Source of the DNA: Phyllosticta citribraziliensis
Lineage: Eukaryota
Direction: 5' to 3'
DNA length: 64,000 nucleotides
Assembly (NCBI RefSeq): GCF_038025025.1
Contig: NW_027117340.1
Coordinates: forward strand, 62,001-126,000
Under the pieces are notes generated by a model. That model worked only from the letters and a program-made list of their open reading frames with translations. It searched no databases and was not told where the DNA came from. Positions 27,801 to 63,955 of this stretch are shown in pieces; within the stretch, counting starts at the first letter, position 1, and the number at the start of each line of letters is the position of its first letter. The position numbers and the translations under genes are program-made.

Positions 27801-28093
27801 AGGACCTCCGCAAACTTCTTGGCAATCCGGTACGCGTACACATCGAGCTGTCGGAAAGTGTAGTGCGTGTAGGTCGTGCCAGTCCAGGGGTACGCGAAGA
27901 CAGAAAAGTCGGGATCGCTCTTTGCTCTGGCCCGGATCAACTCATCAACGGTGCGCGGGCTGTCCTCTGATAGCAAGATTTTGCCAAAAGAACTCCCAAA
28001 TTGCGACTGTTGCTGTCCTTTTGGGACGATTTCCGCGGCCGAAGCCGTGAGGGTTGGCTTGGCGGGGATAGATGGTGTGATTGTTGACAACAT
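24803..28093 (-). CDS. NRPS-like A-T-R enzyme (carboxylic-acid-reductase type)
   Basis: A domain IIHSSGSTSLPK and YGATETG; PCP FFALGMDSL; terminal reductase VLLTGATGSLG and YGQSK; introns 26979-27020 and 26784-26831. Confidence 0.93.
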
Positions 28094-28179
28094 TTTTCTT
28101 GCTGATTTAGACGTACTCGACGCATAGATGGTGTGATTGTTGACAACATTTTTCTTGCTGATTTAGACGTACTCGACGC
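28068..28179. repeat. Perfect 56-bp tandem duplication spanning the NRPS-like start codon
   Basis: 28068-28123 is identical to 28124-28179. Confidence 0.95.
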
Positions 28180-31100
28180 ATGTAGTTTGACTATATATAC
28201 CCCGCCGTACAGTGCTTTTAGTTTTAGCAGCTATAGGCCGTTGCCGTCTAAGCGATCTGCTTTGCTTAGCATGCGTTACTGCATGTGACATGGAACTCGG
28301 AGTTTATCGTTGACATCATTTGTTTCGTGCGAGAGCGGAAAGCGGATGTGCGTCCATTCCGCCGTAGCAGCCGACTTGGGAGAAAAGAGCTGAACCAAGC
28401 TGATGCAAAATGGGCTATTACTCATCAAAGCGGAAACTTTTAAGAGTGGGGAGGAATGACCCTATCACACCTCCCAATCGAGCAAGGAGGCGACGAGGCG
28501 CGAGTTAGTTGATTCAGGACTCTGGAGTACGAGACATGCTCGGGAGTTGAGTTGAAGGCTTGCCGAACGGAGAGAAGCGGCGGTCAGAAATCCAGTCGAG
28601 GTGCCGCTTCGTCTGCATTAACTTTGTAGTAGCTCGAAACTAGTCTGCGGGGTGTGAGCGCCACAGCCATGCCGCGGGTGAAGTGTGCTCGGCGTCTGTT
28701 TTGGGTCGGGGCGGAAAAGGACGTGTCGGCAGGATTATTATCCGCCTCTCTCCAACTTTGATAGCTGACCGTGAGATTTGTCTCTACTCTTGCATAAGAT
28801 AGTTCTTGAAGTTTAAGAAGAGGATTTCCGTCGTCGAGAGTACGTTTTCCAAAGTAGACAGTAAATACTGACCTACGGTTGCCATGGCATCTCGTCTCAA
28901 GTTTGTTGGCTTTGAATTCGTCCAGGTTCTCGCTTTATCGGCAGTCTTCTCCGTCGTTCATAGCTTTCTCTCAAACATCGTCTCTCTTCATGGGAACAAG
29001 CTTGATGTAAGTTTCCGCTTTCCTGATACCGCTGGAGGTCCTTTCCCGCTCACCGATACGACGTATCATACGGAATCAGTCTCGGATCCATCCCGTACTC
29101 GGGATGTCTCAAGGCGGAGAAACGCGAATGAGAGTAGCTCGTTGCTTGGTATACTCCGCACCAGCAAGCAGACGGAAGAGATAAGAGAATTCACATTGTA
29201 CCCTTTCCTGGCGACAGAAGCTTCCCAGAGCTTGTCTTGGTGGCCCTTTCAGTCGCGGACCGTCTCTCTTCAAGCGCGGTATCGCTGTTGGCACGAGTCG
29301 CGCACCAGTCTTGAGACGTCAGTCTTGTTCTGATTTGAGAAACACCACATGGGCGGTAGTCACAACTAGGGCGTGCAGTCAATCTGTCCCGTCATCTCGG
29401 CGTTGACGGGCTGCCTCCGTTTCTTGTTGGTGGTTTGCTGCGCAACTAGACAGACGCAGTCCGGATGCAGGGTGCCGCTTTACCGCTGCCGCTGCCATGC
29501 CGCCGCCATGCCGCTGCCGAGTTCCGTAGTTGCCAGTAGCGCGGGCACTTATTTGAGCGGTAGCGTGGTGATGGAGAGAATGAGTTCAGCCAGCTGACAA
29601 GACCGTCCTCTTTGGCTTCTTGCACAGCCTGAAAATGGTACCGGTGCAACGCCGTTGAAGCGCTTCTATGGTCGGGTTGTGTCAGTGTTGATGGACTAAA
29701 ATCAAACATCGGACCTTTTCATGTCTTCGCTGCTCGTGTGGGAAATTTGGGTAACAACATGTGTCGGCTTGAACGCAACAAGCGTCATAATTTGCAGCAC
29801 TCATCTGACGTTGAGACGTGTTGACTCTTCGCTGTTAAGCGCATGTACAAAAACGAGAACCAAGCAGAGAAGGACAGAAGCGAAATTAACGGCAAAGTCA
29901 TGAAGACGCGTACCAAGACTGGGAGTTGAAGAGAGCTTGACCCAAGATTTGCCATGTCAGGCTTACCAATCTCCCAAATTGACCGTAAATTGGAATGGTC
30001 CAGTGCGTTCACGTGCACCCGGGACACCGCCAGCGCATTTGGAATAATTGAAAGCTCGACGAAGCAGGTGCAATCATCGATTGAAGAGGGAGAGTTGCAA
30101 GTAGCTCAGAAGGAACTGACGATCAGGAGAATCGTCTGGGGTTAGGATGTGAGATCAGCTGCGGCTCATATGTTGTGGAGCTGCTGTCTTGTGGTTGACT
30201 GCCACGTGGAGATGGCGTCGATGCATAGGCAGCTCGAGCGCCGGATGACGATGGACCGTCCACATGTTTTCATAGAAGCTTCCGCGAGTCGAACACCCAC
30301 AAGGTTTGGTAGGGAGTGCAGGGACACCACGTGGTAGAGCAACGGACCGCACCGCAATCATAGATTCGATATAGACTTTGGAAAAGTGCCGAGCGGCACT
30401 CGAGTTTGTCGACTTGGGAGCATTCATGAGGATGCCCTGAAGGTTAGATGGACATCCGGGGAACCGAGGCGCTTGGGACGCGCTATACGAAGCCGGTACC
30501 CATTTTGGGCTTGTCTCTCGACGGACATGTAGAGCTGGCGAGGTCCGGCGGCGGTGCTGCGCTGGCCATCGTCATGTAGTTGCAGCCCGACCGGACACCG
30601 ATTCTATTGCAATAGAGAGCTTGTCGAAGAAACACCATGGTGTCTCTTGTCTCACCGTGCACTTGTCCTACTCATGACATTGCCACAAGACGTAGCCGCC
30701 CACACGACGGCAGAGATGAAAAGATTGGCCACGTGGGACATGACGCTCGGGCGGTGTGCACGTTCGTCGAGTAGATTTGCGTACTCTGTCAAACACGACG
30801 TTGAGTTGATGCCATTGGCTGTTTTTCGACAAAATATATTTTTGATGGTGTACCTGCGTCAAGCAGTCATCTCAGTCGCGTGGCGCCATGGTTCCCCATG
30901 TGTGCTCTCGCTGATCTGCGCAACGAGGTTCCATCCTCTCGGGGTGACGAATTTTATGCTTTGGCGGTGGGAGCTGGTCAAGGCGGATTGACTGGATTGG
31001 GGCCGGAGCTCGGATTGATACGAGGTGAATGATAGCGAAGCTGGTGTGCGGCACAGTTTGTCGAGATTCAAGAGCGACGATTCCAGCGTCTGAGGGTCCC

Positions 31101-35476: not shown

Positions 35477-35566
35477 TGCTCCCACTCAGATTTGAACTGA
35501 GGACCTCGGCATGCCTGATGATTATCAAATACTAGTGCCGCGCTCTACCAACTGAGCCATAGGAGC
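35477..35566 (-). tRNA. tRNA-Thr(AGT) with 17-nt intron (35513-35529)
   Basis: Acceptor stem GCTCCTA/TGGGAGC; D-arm TGGCTCAGTTGGTAGAGC; anticodon stem CGGCA/TGCCG with AGT; T-loop GTTCAAATC. Confidence 0.95.
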
Positions 35567-40995: not shown

Positions 40996-42665
40996 TTAGG
41001 TATACCACGTCGGCACCGGCACCTCGCCCAACAGCGCAAACCTCCCCAGCTCGCGGTTCTTGTGCGCGACCGGATCGTGCACCGTGTGCGTCCTCAAGTC
41101 TCTCCAGAACCGATCCAAGCCCACCTTGCGGCTCGTCGCCTTGCTTCCCGTCACCTCGAAGATGCCGCTCGTCACTCTGAGGCCCGTATCAGTGGAAACG
41201 ACCTTCACGGCTGCCACCGTCTCGGCAAACTCGCCACGCTCCCGCGGCGTCAGCTCCCCACGATTGTTCTTGGTATAGTTGTACTGCTCGTACAGCTGCG
41301 TGGCGGCGGCATTGGCGCGGTCGGCGAGAGCGGCGGCCGCTGCCAGGTGCGCGTGGAAGTTGCCGTAGCGCTCGAGGATATAAAACTCGTCCAAGGCCGA
41401 CTCCTTTGGGTCGGAACTGAACGGCCACGGACGCGTGTGCTGGCGCGTGTACGCCGCTGCGGTCGACAGAGCGCCCTGCGCAATGCCAATGTAAAAGTTG
41501 GAAAATACGAGCTGGATTCTGTGGCGGAGGCAGTCTTAGCACCGTTCTGCTCATCTAGAATGGGGCTGATTTTCGACGCGTGCAAGAGAGCAACATGGGA
41601 GAGACTAACGAGGGAAGCAACAGGGACACGTATGGAATGTCCGACACTTCAGGGATCGGCCGCTTGGTCTGGGGGTTCCAGCCCAGCGCGTCGGTCCACG
41701 GGCTGACGACGTTTTCAATCTTGACGCTGCCAGACTCGGTGAGACGCATGCCAATGTTGTCCCAGTTGTGCGCAAACTGGATGCCTGGCTGGTTGGTTGC
41801 GACGACGGTGAAGATGTGGTCTTTGGTGCCCTCGAGCACGCCCTCGAGGACCGTCAGGTCCGACACGACACCGCCAGTGTTGAAGTTCTTGAATCCATTC
41901 CAGATCAGGGTGTCGCCGTCGGATTTGACGGTCAAGTCGCTGTCTCGCGGGTTGACGGCGCCGCCTAGGAAGAGATTGTTGGAAATGATGAATTCGTGCA
42001 AGGCTTCCGCTTGCTCTGGAGTCCCGACGACATTGACCGTGGCCGACCAGTAAAGCGAGTAGCCATAAATCATCCCGACGTTCCTGTGACGGTAAGCAGA
42101 CGTTGTTTGATCAAGGCTTGGTCGCGAAAGTTGTGGCATCAGGGGCAGTCTGGGAACACCATACGCCTCAACAGGCATCTGACAGGAGCATTCATGTCAC
42201 TCTGGACCAGAGTACGTGCTCGGGAGCATCCAGGAGCCTGAGAGAGAAATGACAGGGGGCATTGGAACCCTGATTCGCAAATCCCTCAGGATTTTGTATG
42301 CCACAACTCTTCTTACCAAGCCTTGGAAGGGGGAAGACTTACCCATCTCCTTGAGCAACCTCTCGGATGAGCCTGTAGCCAACGTGCCACGGTTTTCCGC
42401 CTCCACCGTAGCGCTTTGGACCGAGCACTTTGAGCAGGCCCGAGTGTTTGAGCAGAGCGACCTCTGCACGAGGCGACCTCCCCTCCTGTTCGCGCTGAGC
42501 AGCGTCTTGCTTCAGCACCTCCTTGACTTCAGAGGCACGAGCAAGCCACTCGTCGTCCGTGTCAGGCAGCTTGGCCCACAGCTCGCGATACTTTTCGTAG
42601 ACGGCGGGGTCAGAAGCAGGAAAGTGGCCATTGGCCGAGCCATTGGAGTGTCCGTTTGAAGCCAT
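40996..42665 (-). CDS. DszC/SfnB-like flavin-dependent monooxygenase (acyl-CoA dehydrogenase fold, desulfurising-enzyme family)
   Basis: GGAVNPRD, KNFNTG, WDNIGMRLTESGSV, GLDRFWRDLRTHTVHDPVAHK..PTWYT; introns 42084-42342 and 41519-41609. Confidence 0.9.
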
Positions 42666-43031
42666 TGTGGTGGGAGCAAGATTGGAGAGGCATTGAACAG
42701 CGGCAGACGTCTATTTACCTCGTCGCGGACCCTGCATGGCTAGCGAGCAGCTCGCAATCTGAGCGGGTTATGGTGCTGCAAAGCCAACAACGACGCCATG
42801 CCTCGACTTCCGCCATTCGATCGGCAGCGTGCCGTTATCGAGAAGTGGAGAGATGTGCCCCTCTGCGGAGCTTGAGCCAAAGTCAAAAGCGAGTGCTGGT
42901 AGGTTGTTGTGTCGTGATTGTCGACGGTGTCCCGCGTTGCGACATGACGCAATTCTCGGCCGGCTTTGCTCATCCATGCCCGTCAGGTCGACACGTGAGA
43001 GGCGCGGTTGATGTTGACATGCATTCTCTGT

Positions 43032-53137: not shown

Positions 53138-53451
53138 TTTGATTAGAATTTCGGAATTATCGTGGTAAGCGTTGTGGGCCTGGTCGGCGACTCGGACGTG
53201 GTTGTGATCTAGGCGGTTCGGGCCTGGATGATGGTTGTGGTAGAGTGGTTGCGGTGTGGGTGGATCTGCGGAGGAAGTCCAGAAAAGGTGACAAAAAGTA
53301 TAGGTCTACGGGAGTCAGTGGAAGATTTTTATAGATTTGGCGCCGGCTGCTGGTGAATATCGGCAAAGTCACCGGCGGGGAGGGTGTCAAAAACTCAGAA
53401 AAGGGTGTTAAAGGTTGAAAAAGGGCTGTTACTAACCGCGCGGCCGAACCC

Positions 53452-53694
53452 TGGTGATTCTGGTGATTCTGGTGATTCTGGTGATTCTGGTGATTCTGGT
53501 GATTCTGGTGATTCTGGTGATTCTGGTGATTCTGGTGATTCTGGTGATTCTGGTGATTCTGGTGATTCTGGTGATTCTGGTGATTCTGGTGATTCTGGTG
53601 ATTCTGGTGATTCTGGTGATTCTGGTGATTCTGGTGATTCTGGTGATTCTGGTGATTCTGGTGATTCTGGTGATTCTGGTGATTCTGGTGATTC
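53452..53694. repeat. Perfect minisatellite (TGGTGATTC)27
   Basis: 243 bp of identical 9-mers. Confidence 0.98.
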
Positions 53695-56561: not shown

Positions 56562-58285
56562 TAGACGGCAGCGATGACGGAAAAATGGCGTAGGCCGGCC
56601 GTCGCGAGCCTGAAGATGGATATGCGCGAAGAAAGGGAGCGGAGAAGGAATTCAAGCAAATGAGGGCGGCATCGTGGTCGACCGCGGGCAGGGAGTTTTA
56701 TCAAAAGCTGCGATCAGCGAGCAGGACGCACGTGCGGGCGACGCATGCGCAGATGCAGACGTGGACTTTTTCGTAGGTAGGAAATCAGGCAAGGCTCCGC
56801 TAAGGGCGTCGTAAGCCACTCGACATCCCTACGCGAAGCTCCCATACAAAAGCACTTGCGGCGTCAACATGTACGTCAAACCGATTGAGCCACAGGCCAA
56901 CCATTTGGTGCGCTGGGTTGTTTGCGATAAGGCCGCCGGTCGTTTGTGAGGAACCCCGCCGAGCTTGATGTCATTCTTTGCACGACGACGGCAGCAGTGT
57001 TTTCGACCAAGGGGTCACTCCTCCTGTGTCCTCTCGAAGGGCATTGCTTGCGCACAGGCAGTTGATCACGTCTCGCAGGTTGCGCAGGGAGCAGGTGGAC
57101 GTGGGGCAAGCGGCAAATCCTCAGCAAGGCCGCGCGGATGAGGTGTGCCTTTTGGCTGAAGAAAGATTGGTTAGTCATGGTGTTTTGGCAGGCCGGAGTC
57201 CGCAGGTGATGACGTTGGCCATGTTCTTCTTTGTTGATTCTGCGCTGCGCCTTGCGACGCGTCGAGTCGGCGACATTGAAGCTCGGTGTTCGGATCGGAG
57301 AGAGAGGTGACAAGGCGTCGTCGCGTCGAGGGTGGAGGGACGGTCGCGGTCGGTAGAGGCTCGACTCCCCCTGCCAAGCGCCAAGGCTGCCGGCCCGAAA
57401 CCCACAGCGAGCGCGACGTGGACCGACCGACGGGACCGCCTTTCTCTCCATCCTCCAACCATCATCTCCCCAATTCCTCCCCGGGCAACCAAACTCTCCT
57501 CCACATTCAGGGACCCGTCGGCTTGCGCGGTCTTTCGATGCTCGGAATGCGGCTACCACCGTCGCACCGCTTGGATCTGGGGAACCTGTCACAAATCTAG
57601 CCAGTGCTGGACAAACACATTCTTCATCGTCCCTCACCATTTCGGATTTTGCTCAAGATTCGCTTCTCCGCAAAGGCTGCTCGTATCTCCGCTCTTCTCA
57701 CCAAGTCACGTGTCTCTGCAGCTCATCCACTTTGGTTGTAGGCAGCGATGTTTTCTGAAGCCAAAAAGCCGAGGTTGCAATTCAACAGCTCGAATTTGGA
57801 TTTCGATTAGTCGTCGATGATGTTGGGAATTGACATCTCGCTCATTGGGCCATTCTCAACCTGCCAAAAGCTGGCGCCTAGCACTCAACGACCGTGTCCA
57901 GGACACAACGGCCGTACCTACACTGTCAATGCACATTCAAATCCAACAGACGCCTGGGAGACGACAAAATGGTCCATATATGTTCAAACAACAGACAGTG
58001 GTGCACCAATGGCGTGACACCAAAAGGGTTGGGACAGAATGGCCTGACCTCAGCCCTGTAGCCATTGCTCTCAGCCCAGACGCACCCCGGATTTTTAGCC
58101 AGCGTCCTCCCACCTCACCACCGCTATTCCCCAAACGCATCATCCCCACCGTTTTGTTGGGCCGTCGCGAGACCATGATATGAACTTTTGCCACGCATCC
58201 GCCCATCCCATGGCGCCATTGCCCATTTATATGTCCTTGGGGATACTCTAACTTTTGGAAAAGAAGCCCTCTTGCATTTTACATC

Positions 58286-62024: not shown

Positions 62025-63315
62025 GGTGGTGTGCGATGCGTGGTTCTTTGTTGTTGTTGGTCTTTTGTCGTTTGGATGCTTGCGTTGGCCGACTGGCTGC
62101 TTCTGGCAGCTCTTACCTTCTTTGTCTGCATAACTTTTGACAGCACGTCGCAATTGGTTCTATGTCAACAGAGTTCTTCTTGTTAGCGAGACGCCACCTT
62201 GGTCGGATACCGCTGACATGCCTTGCGCCCTGTTCTCATCGTCATCCTGGTCAAAATGTCACCACAAGTACGGATGCCAAAAGCTGTTCCCATCCACCAC
62301 CATCACTTGAAAGCCACCTGCCATCACATGCCACCATCACTCCGCAGTTTCTGGCCCAACAAGCAGCAGCCTGTCTATTCTGAACACATGGCACCAAAAT
62401 ATCCACGTGAAGCCGTTTCTGCAGCGATCTGGTTTCGCGGATCGCTCCCGTAGTTCAGTGTCCCTCAGTAAGTCGCCAGGCCCAAAATCACCGAGCTTTC
62501 TCTCCTCGCGATGGCCATGGTATCGTGCGCCACAGCACCGCCAAAGCGTCTCTTCACAAGTGAAGCGGCGTTTCGGCGACGAAAGCACCGCGATGCGAGA
62601 AGTGCGGTTCAGGGACACTGCTAAACCCTGGACGCGAGTGCAGTCCAGTCCAGTCCATCCCTTGCAGAACATGACTTCAGGGTCTTGTGGTACCGCTGCG
62701 CCAGTCTGCGACAATTCGGGGAAAAGGGGGGTGTTGAGGGAGTGTAAATTTGGTCGAAAGGGTCTCATGTCAGTGAAGCCGATTCCTTCAGGGGCACGGA
62801 TGGGAGGCAACGGGGCCTTACACGACGAGGGGAGGTAAGTAGTCTTGCCCATTGGGAGCATTCGTATACTCTAACAGGCGACTGGTGAGGAGCATTCGTA
62901 TGCTGTGACAGATGGCTGATAGGGAGCATTCAAGTGTCGAGCATCGTGATCGAGAGGTCGTGTATGCCACGGCTTTTGCTCCAACCCTCGTATCCTGGGT
63001 CAAAGAAGTGCAACCAGGGACCAGCAACGCCATTAAGGGCGTGATTCCCCGGTTGACTGTCTCCGGTTAAGGGGCCGTAGGGCAAGTTAACATGCCAATC
63101 GGCGGCACCGGAGTCTTGACTACCGACCAACACCTCAACCACAGACCGCGAAATCGTGACCACATATCGCGCATTGTACCACCTTTACTCTTGCATGTGG
63201 TCCGAGTCACTCAAGGTGGTTGAGGTTAGCTAAGTAGGCCAGTGCTCGTCGGAAGGGAGGGTATAAGGCTTGCGCTCCCGCCGCTCAGCTTCTCTCTACT
63301 TCATTTCTCGACATC

Positions 63316-63955
63316 TATCGCCATATCTTCCATCTTCCCCCGCCTTATCCGCCGCCTCCCATCTCTTTCTCTCTTTCTTGTCTCTCTCTCGTCTGTCTCT
63401 TTCCAGTCTCTGTCTTTCTTTCCAGTCCCTGTCTTTCTTTCCAGTCCCTGTCTTTCTTTCCAGTCCCTGTCTTTCTTTCCAGTCTGTCTCTTTCTTTCCA
63501 GTCGCCTGTATATCTTACCATATATCCCATCTACTGTTTCCCACCATCTTCACCATCTCGCGCCATCTCTGCCATCTCCTCCATTTCTTAACATTACCGC
63601 CATCTCACCGCAATCTACCCCCATATCTTCCATCTTCCCCCGCCTTATTCGCCTTCTCCCTAGTCTCTGTCTTTCTTTCCAGTCAGTCTCTTTCCAGTCG
63701 CCTGTATATCTTGCAATATATCCTATCTACTCTCCATTTCTCAATATTGCTGCCATCTACCCCCCCATCTACCGCCATCTCACCTCTCATCTTCCCCCGC
63801 CTTATTCGCCTTCTCCCTAGTCTCTGTCTTTCTTTCCAGTCAGTCTCTTTCCAGTCTCTTACAGTCGCCTGTATATCTTACAATATGTCCCATATGTCCC
63901 ATGTCAACGCCATCTATACCGCCATCTCGTCTCACATTCCCCCGCCTTATCCGCC
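63316..63955. repeat. Nested pyrimidine-rich tandem repeat array
   Basis: ~19-bp TCTTTCCAGTCCCTGTCTT-type units inside larger modules anchored by TTCCCCCGCCTTAT (near 63335, 63635, 63792, 63937). Confidence 0.85.

Follow-up and report, generated by a model that had tools for sequence, protein, structure and literature searches.

How can a fungus that is used to introns of about 50 nt still splice one that is five times as long? This question is raised by the first intron of a gene for a DszC-like flavin monooxygenase in Phyllosticta citribraziliensis. The gene lies on the minus strand of a stretch of 64,000 nt from contig NW_027117340.1 (positions 62,001 to 126,000 of the forward strand; assembly GCF_038025025.1), which is referred to here as the window and to which all coordinates apply. 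In fungi whose introns are very short, recognition is believed to act across the length of the intron, and a five-fold enlargement should therefore be hard to tolerate. The answer towards which we lean, with moderate assurance, is that a piece of a repeat was inserted in an old short intron and is looped out by an RNA stem that aids splicing at the original borders. The intron, designated intron 1, and its parts are as follows.

42084..42342, minus strand: intron 1, 259 nt, GTAAGT..CAG, phase 2, defined by sequence and by a contig joint.
42326..42342, minus strand: 5' tail of the intron, 17 nt, with the 5' splice site GTAAGT at 42337-42342.
42298..42325, minus strand: 5' arm, consisting of outer strand 42315-42325, loop AAGAAG 42309-42314 and inner strand 42298-42308.
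42140..42297, no strand assigned: interior of the insert, about four degenerate units of 33-42 nt on the plus strand.
42112..42139, minus strand: 3' arm, consisting of inner strand 42129-42139, loop UUCGCG 42123-42128 and outer strand 42112-42122.
42084..42111, minus strand: 3' tail of the intron, 28 nt, with the 3' splice site CAG at 42084-42086.
42112..42325, no strand assigned: the insert, 214 nt bounded by the inverted repeat and without counterpart in homologous introns.

Intron 1 is a real GT..AG spliceosomal (U2-type) intron and is removed exactly. Contigs from four public runs (X1, X5, X6 and X9) were aligned to positions 41450-42700. X1 is from the same organism, with four of its five aligned pieces at least 99% alike to the window. 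In this run, a contig with a depth of 304 joins 42082/3 to 42342/3; the skipped stretch has CT..AC ends on the plus strand and measures exactly 259 bases, which is the length assigned to the intron in a preliminary description made from the letters alone. The 91 bases of intron 2 are likewise skipped where an X1 contig joins 41518 to 41610 at a depth of 573. Because both introns are joined out in X1 contigs, the introns are verified and X1 must hold RNA-derived sequence. Removal of intron 1 from a Gly codon split as GG|G restores the reading frame, with ...QGDG joined to NVGMIYGY. X9 contributed only one 250-nt exon piece, which is identical to the window.

The unspliced form is also present in X1. 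A 317-nt contig (42055-42371, depth 299) keeps both exon junctions of intron 1; together, the depths of the spliced and unspliced forms (304 and 299) come close to that of exon 2 (573). Intron 2, which serves as an internal control, has no coverage in its middle in the same run (depth 0 in the bin 41534-41575); because no contig spans it, genomic DNA is an unlikely source of the unspliced form. We read these depths to mean that intron 1 is retained in roughly half of the X1 molecules and intron 2 in very few. Intron 1 opens in frame with a TAA stop codon, so retention of the intron would truncate the protein at about 108 aa. A sequence resembling a 5' splice site, GGUAAGA, lies inside the 5' arm (42311-42317, minus strand), 26 nt downstream of the real site. 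It is predicted to be partly masked by the stem, and no contig from the four runs shows splicing there.

The position of intron 1 is much older than its present length. Exon 2 was scanned against metagenome contigs, which yielded seven fungal loci (five distinct sequences) that are 63-67% identical to it over all 155 residues. A GT..AG phase-2 intron is found in the same GG|N codon in all seven, with the end of exon 1 and the start of exon 2 at the same residues. This agreement in codon and phase makes the intron position ancient. The homologous introns measure 46, 46, 47, 47, 47, 50 and 65 nt, and their minimum free energies (MFE) range from -4.4 to -10.3 kcal/mol. Outside the stem, intron 1 retains 17 + 28 = 45 nt (259 - 214), a count already made in the preliminary description and the usual size of the homologous introns. 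Because the homologues carry a short, unstructured intron in the same codon, the extra 214 nt have been inserted into an intron that was already old and short. When the insert was compared by BLAST with the seven homologous loci, nothing significant was returned (best E 0.19). A protein search with the sense open reading frame (ORF) that starts inside the intron, made for ORF calls in relatives, gave no candidate.

Two of the other runs bear on the more recent history of the intron. In X6, from a further organism (C), the whole stretch lies in one 9.5-kb contig with 54 differences; as this contig shows no gaps, organism C has the same 259-nt intron. X5, from organism B, contains a variant in which the intron has 26 differences and one 1-nt gap. 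A minor X5 variant, 84% identical, has 86 letters where the window has 301, and its intron would be about 44 nt long if the exon part is free of insertions and deletions. Another X5 joint, from 42124 to 42335, skips 210 bases without giving the intervening letters; judged from the record lengths only, it may be a variant with about 157 other letters and an intron of about 206 nt. X5 thus holds at least three gene variants (approximately 94%, 87% and 84% identical) with introns of apparently 259, about 206 and about 44 nt, which come either from a mixed sample or from a set of paralogues.

The inserted sequence itself appears, from its relatives at other loci, to belong to a low-copy, diverged dispersed repeat family. 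The units of its interior share a GGRGCAT core at 42185, 42223 and 42256, with a weak one near 42141-42151 (plus strand). Following this shared word, and then making a gapped collinear alignment, led to a second copy in the window.

62855..62988, plus strand: second diverged copy, corresponding to the right 140 nt of the insert (units and right arm), non-coding.

Positions 42185-42323 are collinear, on the same strand, with this copy, and 94 of 127 columns (74%) are identical, the right arm included. The local score of 32 was reached by none of 2902 random chunks of the window (mean 14.6, standard deviation 2.6, maximum 24). With stricter scoring, the best segment of the alignment was reached by 7 of 1441. 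The second copy lies about 830 nt downstream of a kinase-like ORF, is reported by TRF as 2.3 copies of a 34-nt period and is not unusually structured (z -0.41). Its third unit is matched exactly, over 15 nt, by a loose end from organism C. Contigs from other loci also match 42197-42271 at about 83-86% identity; one is a 4.2-kb contig of X1, on the opposite strand, and two are from X6. Several loose ends of X5 fall within the intron. No near-identical copy of the insert was seen in the four runs aligned. Short-word BLAST of the intron against the window gave no significant second copy (best non-self E 1.9), and nhmmer with unit and two-copy profiles gave no further significant match in the 64 kb (next best E 0.12-0.39).

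The array around the second copy (62834-62990, plus strand) has some features of its own. Its tandem units contain CTAACAG and GTGACAG, which resemble branch sites and 3' splice sites, GGTGAG, which resembles a 5' splice site, and also GTATAC and GTATGC; GGTAAGT precedes the array. A hAT-like end was considered for the insert, the arm beginning with CAAGG, and was rejected for want of an 8-bp duplication.

In the RNA, the two arms are predicted to form one long-range stem. Each is 28 nt long; they are 82% complementary and lie 158 nt apart. As the preliminary description had recognised, they give two perfect 11-bp Watson-Crick helices around a 6x6 internal loop. The helices occupy intron positions 18-28/221-231 and 35-45/204-214, all 22 pairs have predicted probabilities of 0.89-1.00, and the energy of the arm duplex is -38.3 kcal/mol. 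The stem probability stays at 0.89 or above with 0, 40, 80 or 150 nt of exon flank on each side. Among inverted repeats of at least 20 nt (seed 11, arms at most 600 apart) this one is the strongest of only three in the 64 kb.

Comparison with shuffled controls, one of the checks proposed in the preliminary description, places the intron beyond chance. The transcribed strand has an MFE of -90.3 (z -3.87) and none of 200 shuffles was as stable; with 1000 dinucleotide-preserving shuffles (z -3.94), none had an MFE as low. The end-to-end duplex energy was matched by 1 of 1000 shuffles, and a perfect long-range helix of at least 11 bp occurred in 2 of 1000. The 158-nt interior alone folds like its shuffles (z -0.68; 43 of 200 fold as well), and the excess structure therefore resides in the long-range stem alone. 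Of the three further hairpins that had been proposed inside the stem, AUGCCU/AGGCGU is well supported by the predicted pairing (probability 0.87-0.99) and ACUCUG/CAGAGU moderately so (0.29-0.42), while AAAUCC/GGAUUU has a probability of 0. The folding models thus describe a DNA-level inverted repeat that gives one long-range RNA stem, and not an elaborate fold; the stem probably also forms in vivo.

No known RNA family accounts for the structure in the Rfam 15 search around the intron (E up to 10). The best matches had E values of 3.5-8 and 13.6-14.6 bits against a gathering threshold of 45, and all were on the non-transcribed strand. At the curated gathering threshold, the sole Rfam match in the whole window was a tRNA at 35477-35566. 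The preliminary description had recognised neither a TPP-riboswitch core nor a target-site duplication, and the Rfam search and the flanks of the arms agree with it on both counts. A box C/D snoRNA was considered by eye, with CUGA before the 3' stem strand, and dismissed because there is no C box after the 5' strand.

The placement of the stem in relation to the splicing signals is what suggests a part in splicing. The best-placed branch-site candidate is CUUAC at 42092-42096, and its A at 42093, which is intron position 250 (A250) and 9 nt before the last base, is the probable branch point on sequence grounds. Each of the six homologous introns of 46-50 nt has a single motif of this kind, with its A at a distance of 35-39 nt from the 5' end and 9-12 nt from the 3' end. 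For the homologous intron of 65 nt, taking the 3'-most motif, the corresponding distances are 53 and 12 nt. When the 214-nt insert is subtracted, A250 stands 36 nt from the 5' end, which matches the spacing in the insert-free relatives. Closure of the stem would also bring the 5' splice site up to GCUUAC in the 3' tail, with which it can pair; for the isolated intron this pairing has a predicted probability of about 0.9, which falls to about 0.7 when 40-80 nt of exon flank are included and to about 0.01 with 150 nt.

From these observations, the following sequence of events is proposed. An ancient intron of about 46 nt would have taken up, in this lineage, a piece of about 214 nt from a low-copy dispersed repeat. 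In the pre-mRNA, the arms would come together in a 'zipper' stem made of the two 11-bp helices, looping the insert out, and the closed stem would reproduce the ancestral intron geometry. The restored geometry would then be why the original splice sites still work in a fungus accustomed to introns of about 50 nt; we put the likelihood that the spacing is indeed the reason at about one half. The pairing of the 5' splice site with GCUUAC, together with the length of the intron, could explain the poor splicing of intron 1 in X1. Both the help given by the stem to splicing and this cause of retention are inferred.

Several observations weigh against this proposal. Judged by criteria derived from yeast, the linkers are too short for a zipper, with 35 nt in total and 18 nt to the branch A. 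The stem may also impede splicing, and half of the RNA is unspliced. The retention figure itself comes from contig depths of a single run under unspecified conditions, and rare variants are lost from contigs. In a list that covers part of the differences in organisms B and C, 12 are substitutions in the intron, and not one of them hits the 44 bases of the helices; the chance of such an outcome is about 0.1. The non-transcribed strand folds at least as well as the transcribed one (-96.5 against -90.3), and because both strands fold about equally there is no pointer to selection at the level of RNA. As for the origin of the insert, the flanks read directly show no target-site duplication of 2-10 nt beside the arms; of the two arms, the second copy shows just the right one, and it has no comparable inverted repeat. 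The left arm could have been there from the start or have arisen afterwards by inverted duplication.

A rival account treats the insert as a neutral passenger: its origin is the same, but the stem takes no part in splicing, the spliceosome reaches the original sites in spite of the 259 nt, the helices are a young inverted duplication and retention follows from length alone. Pure Watson-Crick helices and an equally well-folding opposite strand are what a DNA-level palindrome would be expected to give. The literature offers some precedent as well: the terminal inverted repeats of proliferated introns in the Hypoxylaceae are reported to be unneeded for excision (Fekete et al., 2021, PMC8469720), and one set of zipper-stem mutants in yeast lowered retention rather than raising it (Rangan et al., 2025, PMC12350175). 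On such an account, however, the almost exact restoration of the ancestral 36-nt spacing would be a coincidence. Nor does the mismatch pattern of the arms look like random decay, since all five mismatches lie in six adjacent central positions and the flanking pairs are perfect in 22 of 22 cases. A stem without function is a possibility to be taken seriously, but an unlikely one. A third account starts from the same element and reverses its role: the repeat-derived stem was taken over as a splicing attenuator, in which the 5' splice site is held against a complementary branch-site region and about half of the transcripts of this sulfur-type monooxygenase stay unspliced and untranslatable. This is improbable. 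If it were true, opening or stabilising the stem by temperature, an RNA helicase or nutrient state would tune enzyme output, and the zipper stem would be a regulated brake in a filamentous fungus.

The preliminary description had itself offered two explanations, a cis-regulatory RNA structure controlling the splicing of a sulfur-scavenging enzyme and an element that is introner-like or derived from a miniature inverted-repeat transposable element (MITE). A selected regulatory RNA would set retention by sulfur status, a metabolite, temperature or a helicase. It would fit the equal depths of spliced and unspliced RNA beside a fully spliced neighbouring intron in X1, the immediate stop codon on retention, the predicted pairing of the 5' splice site with the probable branch site when the zipper is closed, and the intron of the same length in organism C and in one variant of organism B's run. 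Set against this, there is no matching Rfam family, and an interior no more structured than its shuffles indicates no ligand pocket. Moreover, the insert is absent from all seven of the more distant homologues and derives from a repeat, while the pairing of the 5' splice site with GCUUAC vanishes with exon flanks of 150 nt. The neighbourhood of the gene, described below, shows no sulfur gene cluster, and its promoter has no CYS3/MetR-type site (the single match in the 64-kb window is at 58210). Rfam, the interior, the opposite strand and the neighbouring genes thus give the sulfur-regulation idea no positive support, and we regard it as quite improbable, although the unspliced half of the RNA depth at intron 1, from one RNA-type run, keeps a regulatory or attenuating effect open.

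Of the second explanation, derivation from a repeat has stood, through the second copy and the contigs from other loci; a newly made intron is contradicted by the seven homologues, and a MITE by the missing duplication and the one-armed copy. If the whole 259-nt intron were an introner-like element (ILE), it would be a copy of a proliferating family with its own splice signals that had landed at, or replaced, this site. Its length beyond that of regular introns and its stable predicted structure are hallmark ILE features (Collemare et al., 2013, PMC3609843), and related sequence does occur at other loci. One loose end of X5 even reads as a 5' splice site on a different exon beside sequence like 42295-42332, with the proviso that these ends possibly do not form one contig. 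But the position is old, with codon and phase shared by all seven homologues. The insert contains neither the splice sites nor the candidate branch site, all of which belong to the 45 nt around it; the window offers just one other copy, which is partial, 74% identical and situated in non-coding DNA; and no near-identical copy was seen in the four aligned runs. An introner-like origin of the entire intron is accordingly very unlikely. The insertion of a repeat piece into an old intron, looped out by a helpful stem, remains the account that we prefer.

The host gene is made up of three exons, over which the N-terminal, middle and C-terminal domains of the acyl-CoA-dehydrogenase fold are spread. 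Apart from intron 1, its features are as follows.

42343..42665, minus strand: exon 1, from the translation, with the ATG at 42665, ending with the GG of the split Gly codon.
41610..42083, minus strand: exon 2, with Pfam Acyl-CoA_dh_M (below the curated cut-off) and PDB matches.
41519..41609, minus strand: intron 2, 91 nt, GTTAGT..CAG, defined by a contig joint.
40996..41518, minus strand: exon 3, with the stop codon at 40996-40998 and Pfam Acyl-CoA_dh_2 (E 9e-13).

Exon 1 matches Pfam Acyl-CoA_dh_N with E 3.2e-4, which is below the curated cut-off. Against the PDB, exon 2 matches 8cda, a probable monooxygenase (E 3e-14), the methanesulfinate monooxygenase 6u76 (E 3.7e-12) and DszC (E 1.9e-10). 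Judged by these matches, 'DszC-like' seems a fair label for the gene, and they do not assign a substrate. The neighbouring genes encode a tRNA m1G methyltransferase, a TLDc protein, an S-adenosylmethionine (SAM) methyltransferase, a carboxylesterase and an amino-acid transporter. Intron 2 has no counterpart in six of the seven homologous loci, in which exons 2 and 3 are contiguous; in the seventh, a gap of about 65 nt separates them. From these comparisons, intron 2 would be either a lineage-specific gain or the remainder of repeated loss.

Elsewhere in the window, positions 63362-63927 hold dense tandem arrays with periods of 19, 38, 57 and 157, whose unit is a polypyrimidine run ending in CAG and resembles a 3' splice site. 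A perfect 9-nt repeat is present in 27 copies (100% matches) at 53451-53694, and a perfect 56-nt tandem duplication at 28068-28181. The tRNA gene at 35477-35566 (minus strand) is 90 nt long against a model of 71 positions and probably contains an intron.

The interest of the locus lies in what it brings together. One can see at a single place what the intron was like ancestrally (46-50 nt in most homologues), what was inserted, the family from which the insert came and how splicing turned out. The element does not represent a new class of RNA. It exemplifies the growth of introns by repeat insertion, as distinct from the gain of introns, and it provides a natural test of whether zipper stems, known so far from work on budding yeast, restore splicing in filamentous fungi or hold it back.

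A search of the literature on repeats or introns in Phyllosticta found nothing relevant among the papers listed, and the comparisons available are with other fungi. The closest description is that of a repetitive element inserted within a regular intron. Such cases have been reported in three other fungi and set apart from true ILEs (Collemare et al., 2013, PMC3609843). There, as here, a pre-existing intron was enlarged by a repeat and the old splice sites were kept. The published cases are near-identical, multi-copy inserts, whereas the sole other copy in the window is partial and 74% identical. A stem restoring the old splice-site geometry, as proposed here, is a feature that the part of that paper used does not discuss.

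True ILEs of the Dothideomycetes, described by van der Burgt, Collemare and colleagues, occupy new intron positions in dozens to hundreds of near-identical copies, with the splice signals included in the element (PMC3609843; PMC4457414). Intron 1 resembles them in being longer than regular introns (259 against 46-65 nt), in its stable structure (z -3.9) and in having related sequence elsewhere. It differs in its ancient position, in the apparently few and diverged copies and in having its splice signals outside the insert. The symmetrical sister (stw)introns of the Hypoxylaceae have terminal repeats of 45-55 nt that include the intron ends, and are found at new positions in dozens of copies (Fekete et al., 2021, PMC8469720). 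Long inverted repeats, the lack of a target-site duplication and the lack of an Rfam match are common to both, but here the repeat is subterminal, 28 nt long and inside an old intron. With MITEs, the insert shares its size of about 200 bp, its non-coding nature, the inverted repeats at both ends and the related copies elsewhere. Unlike a MITE, it has no target-site duplication, its second copy in the window lacks one arm, and between its arms units of about 34 nt are repeated in a short tandem array.

For the stem itself, the comparison is with the zipper stems of Saccharomyces cerevisiae introns such as RPS17B and RPL7B (Rangan et al., 2025, PMC12350175; for RPL7B also 10.1101/2025.03.14.643126). 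The criteria given by Rangan et al., modelled on the yeast A complex, include a total linker of 42-85 nt and at least 20 nt to the branch A. The predicted stem in intron 1, with 22 bp, pair probabilities of at least 0.89 and -38 kcal/mol, is in keeping with the yeast definition, and so is the 5' linker of 17 nt. The total linker of 35 nt and the 18 nt to the putative A250 fall short of the yeast values. In contrast to the yeast zippers, the stem of intron 1, whose function is a prediction, lies outside the Saccharomycotina, in a fungus with short introns, and has its origin in a DNA-level inverted repeat.

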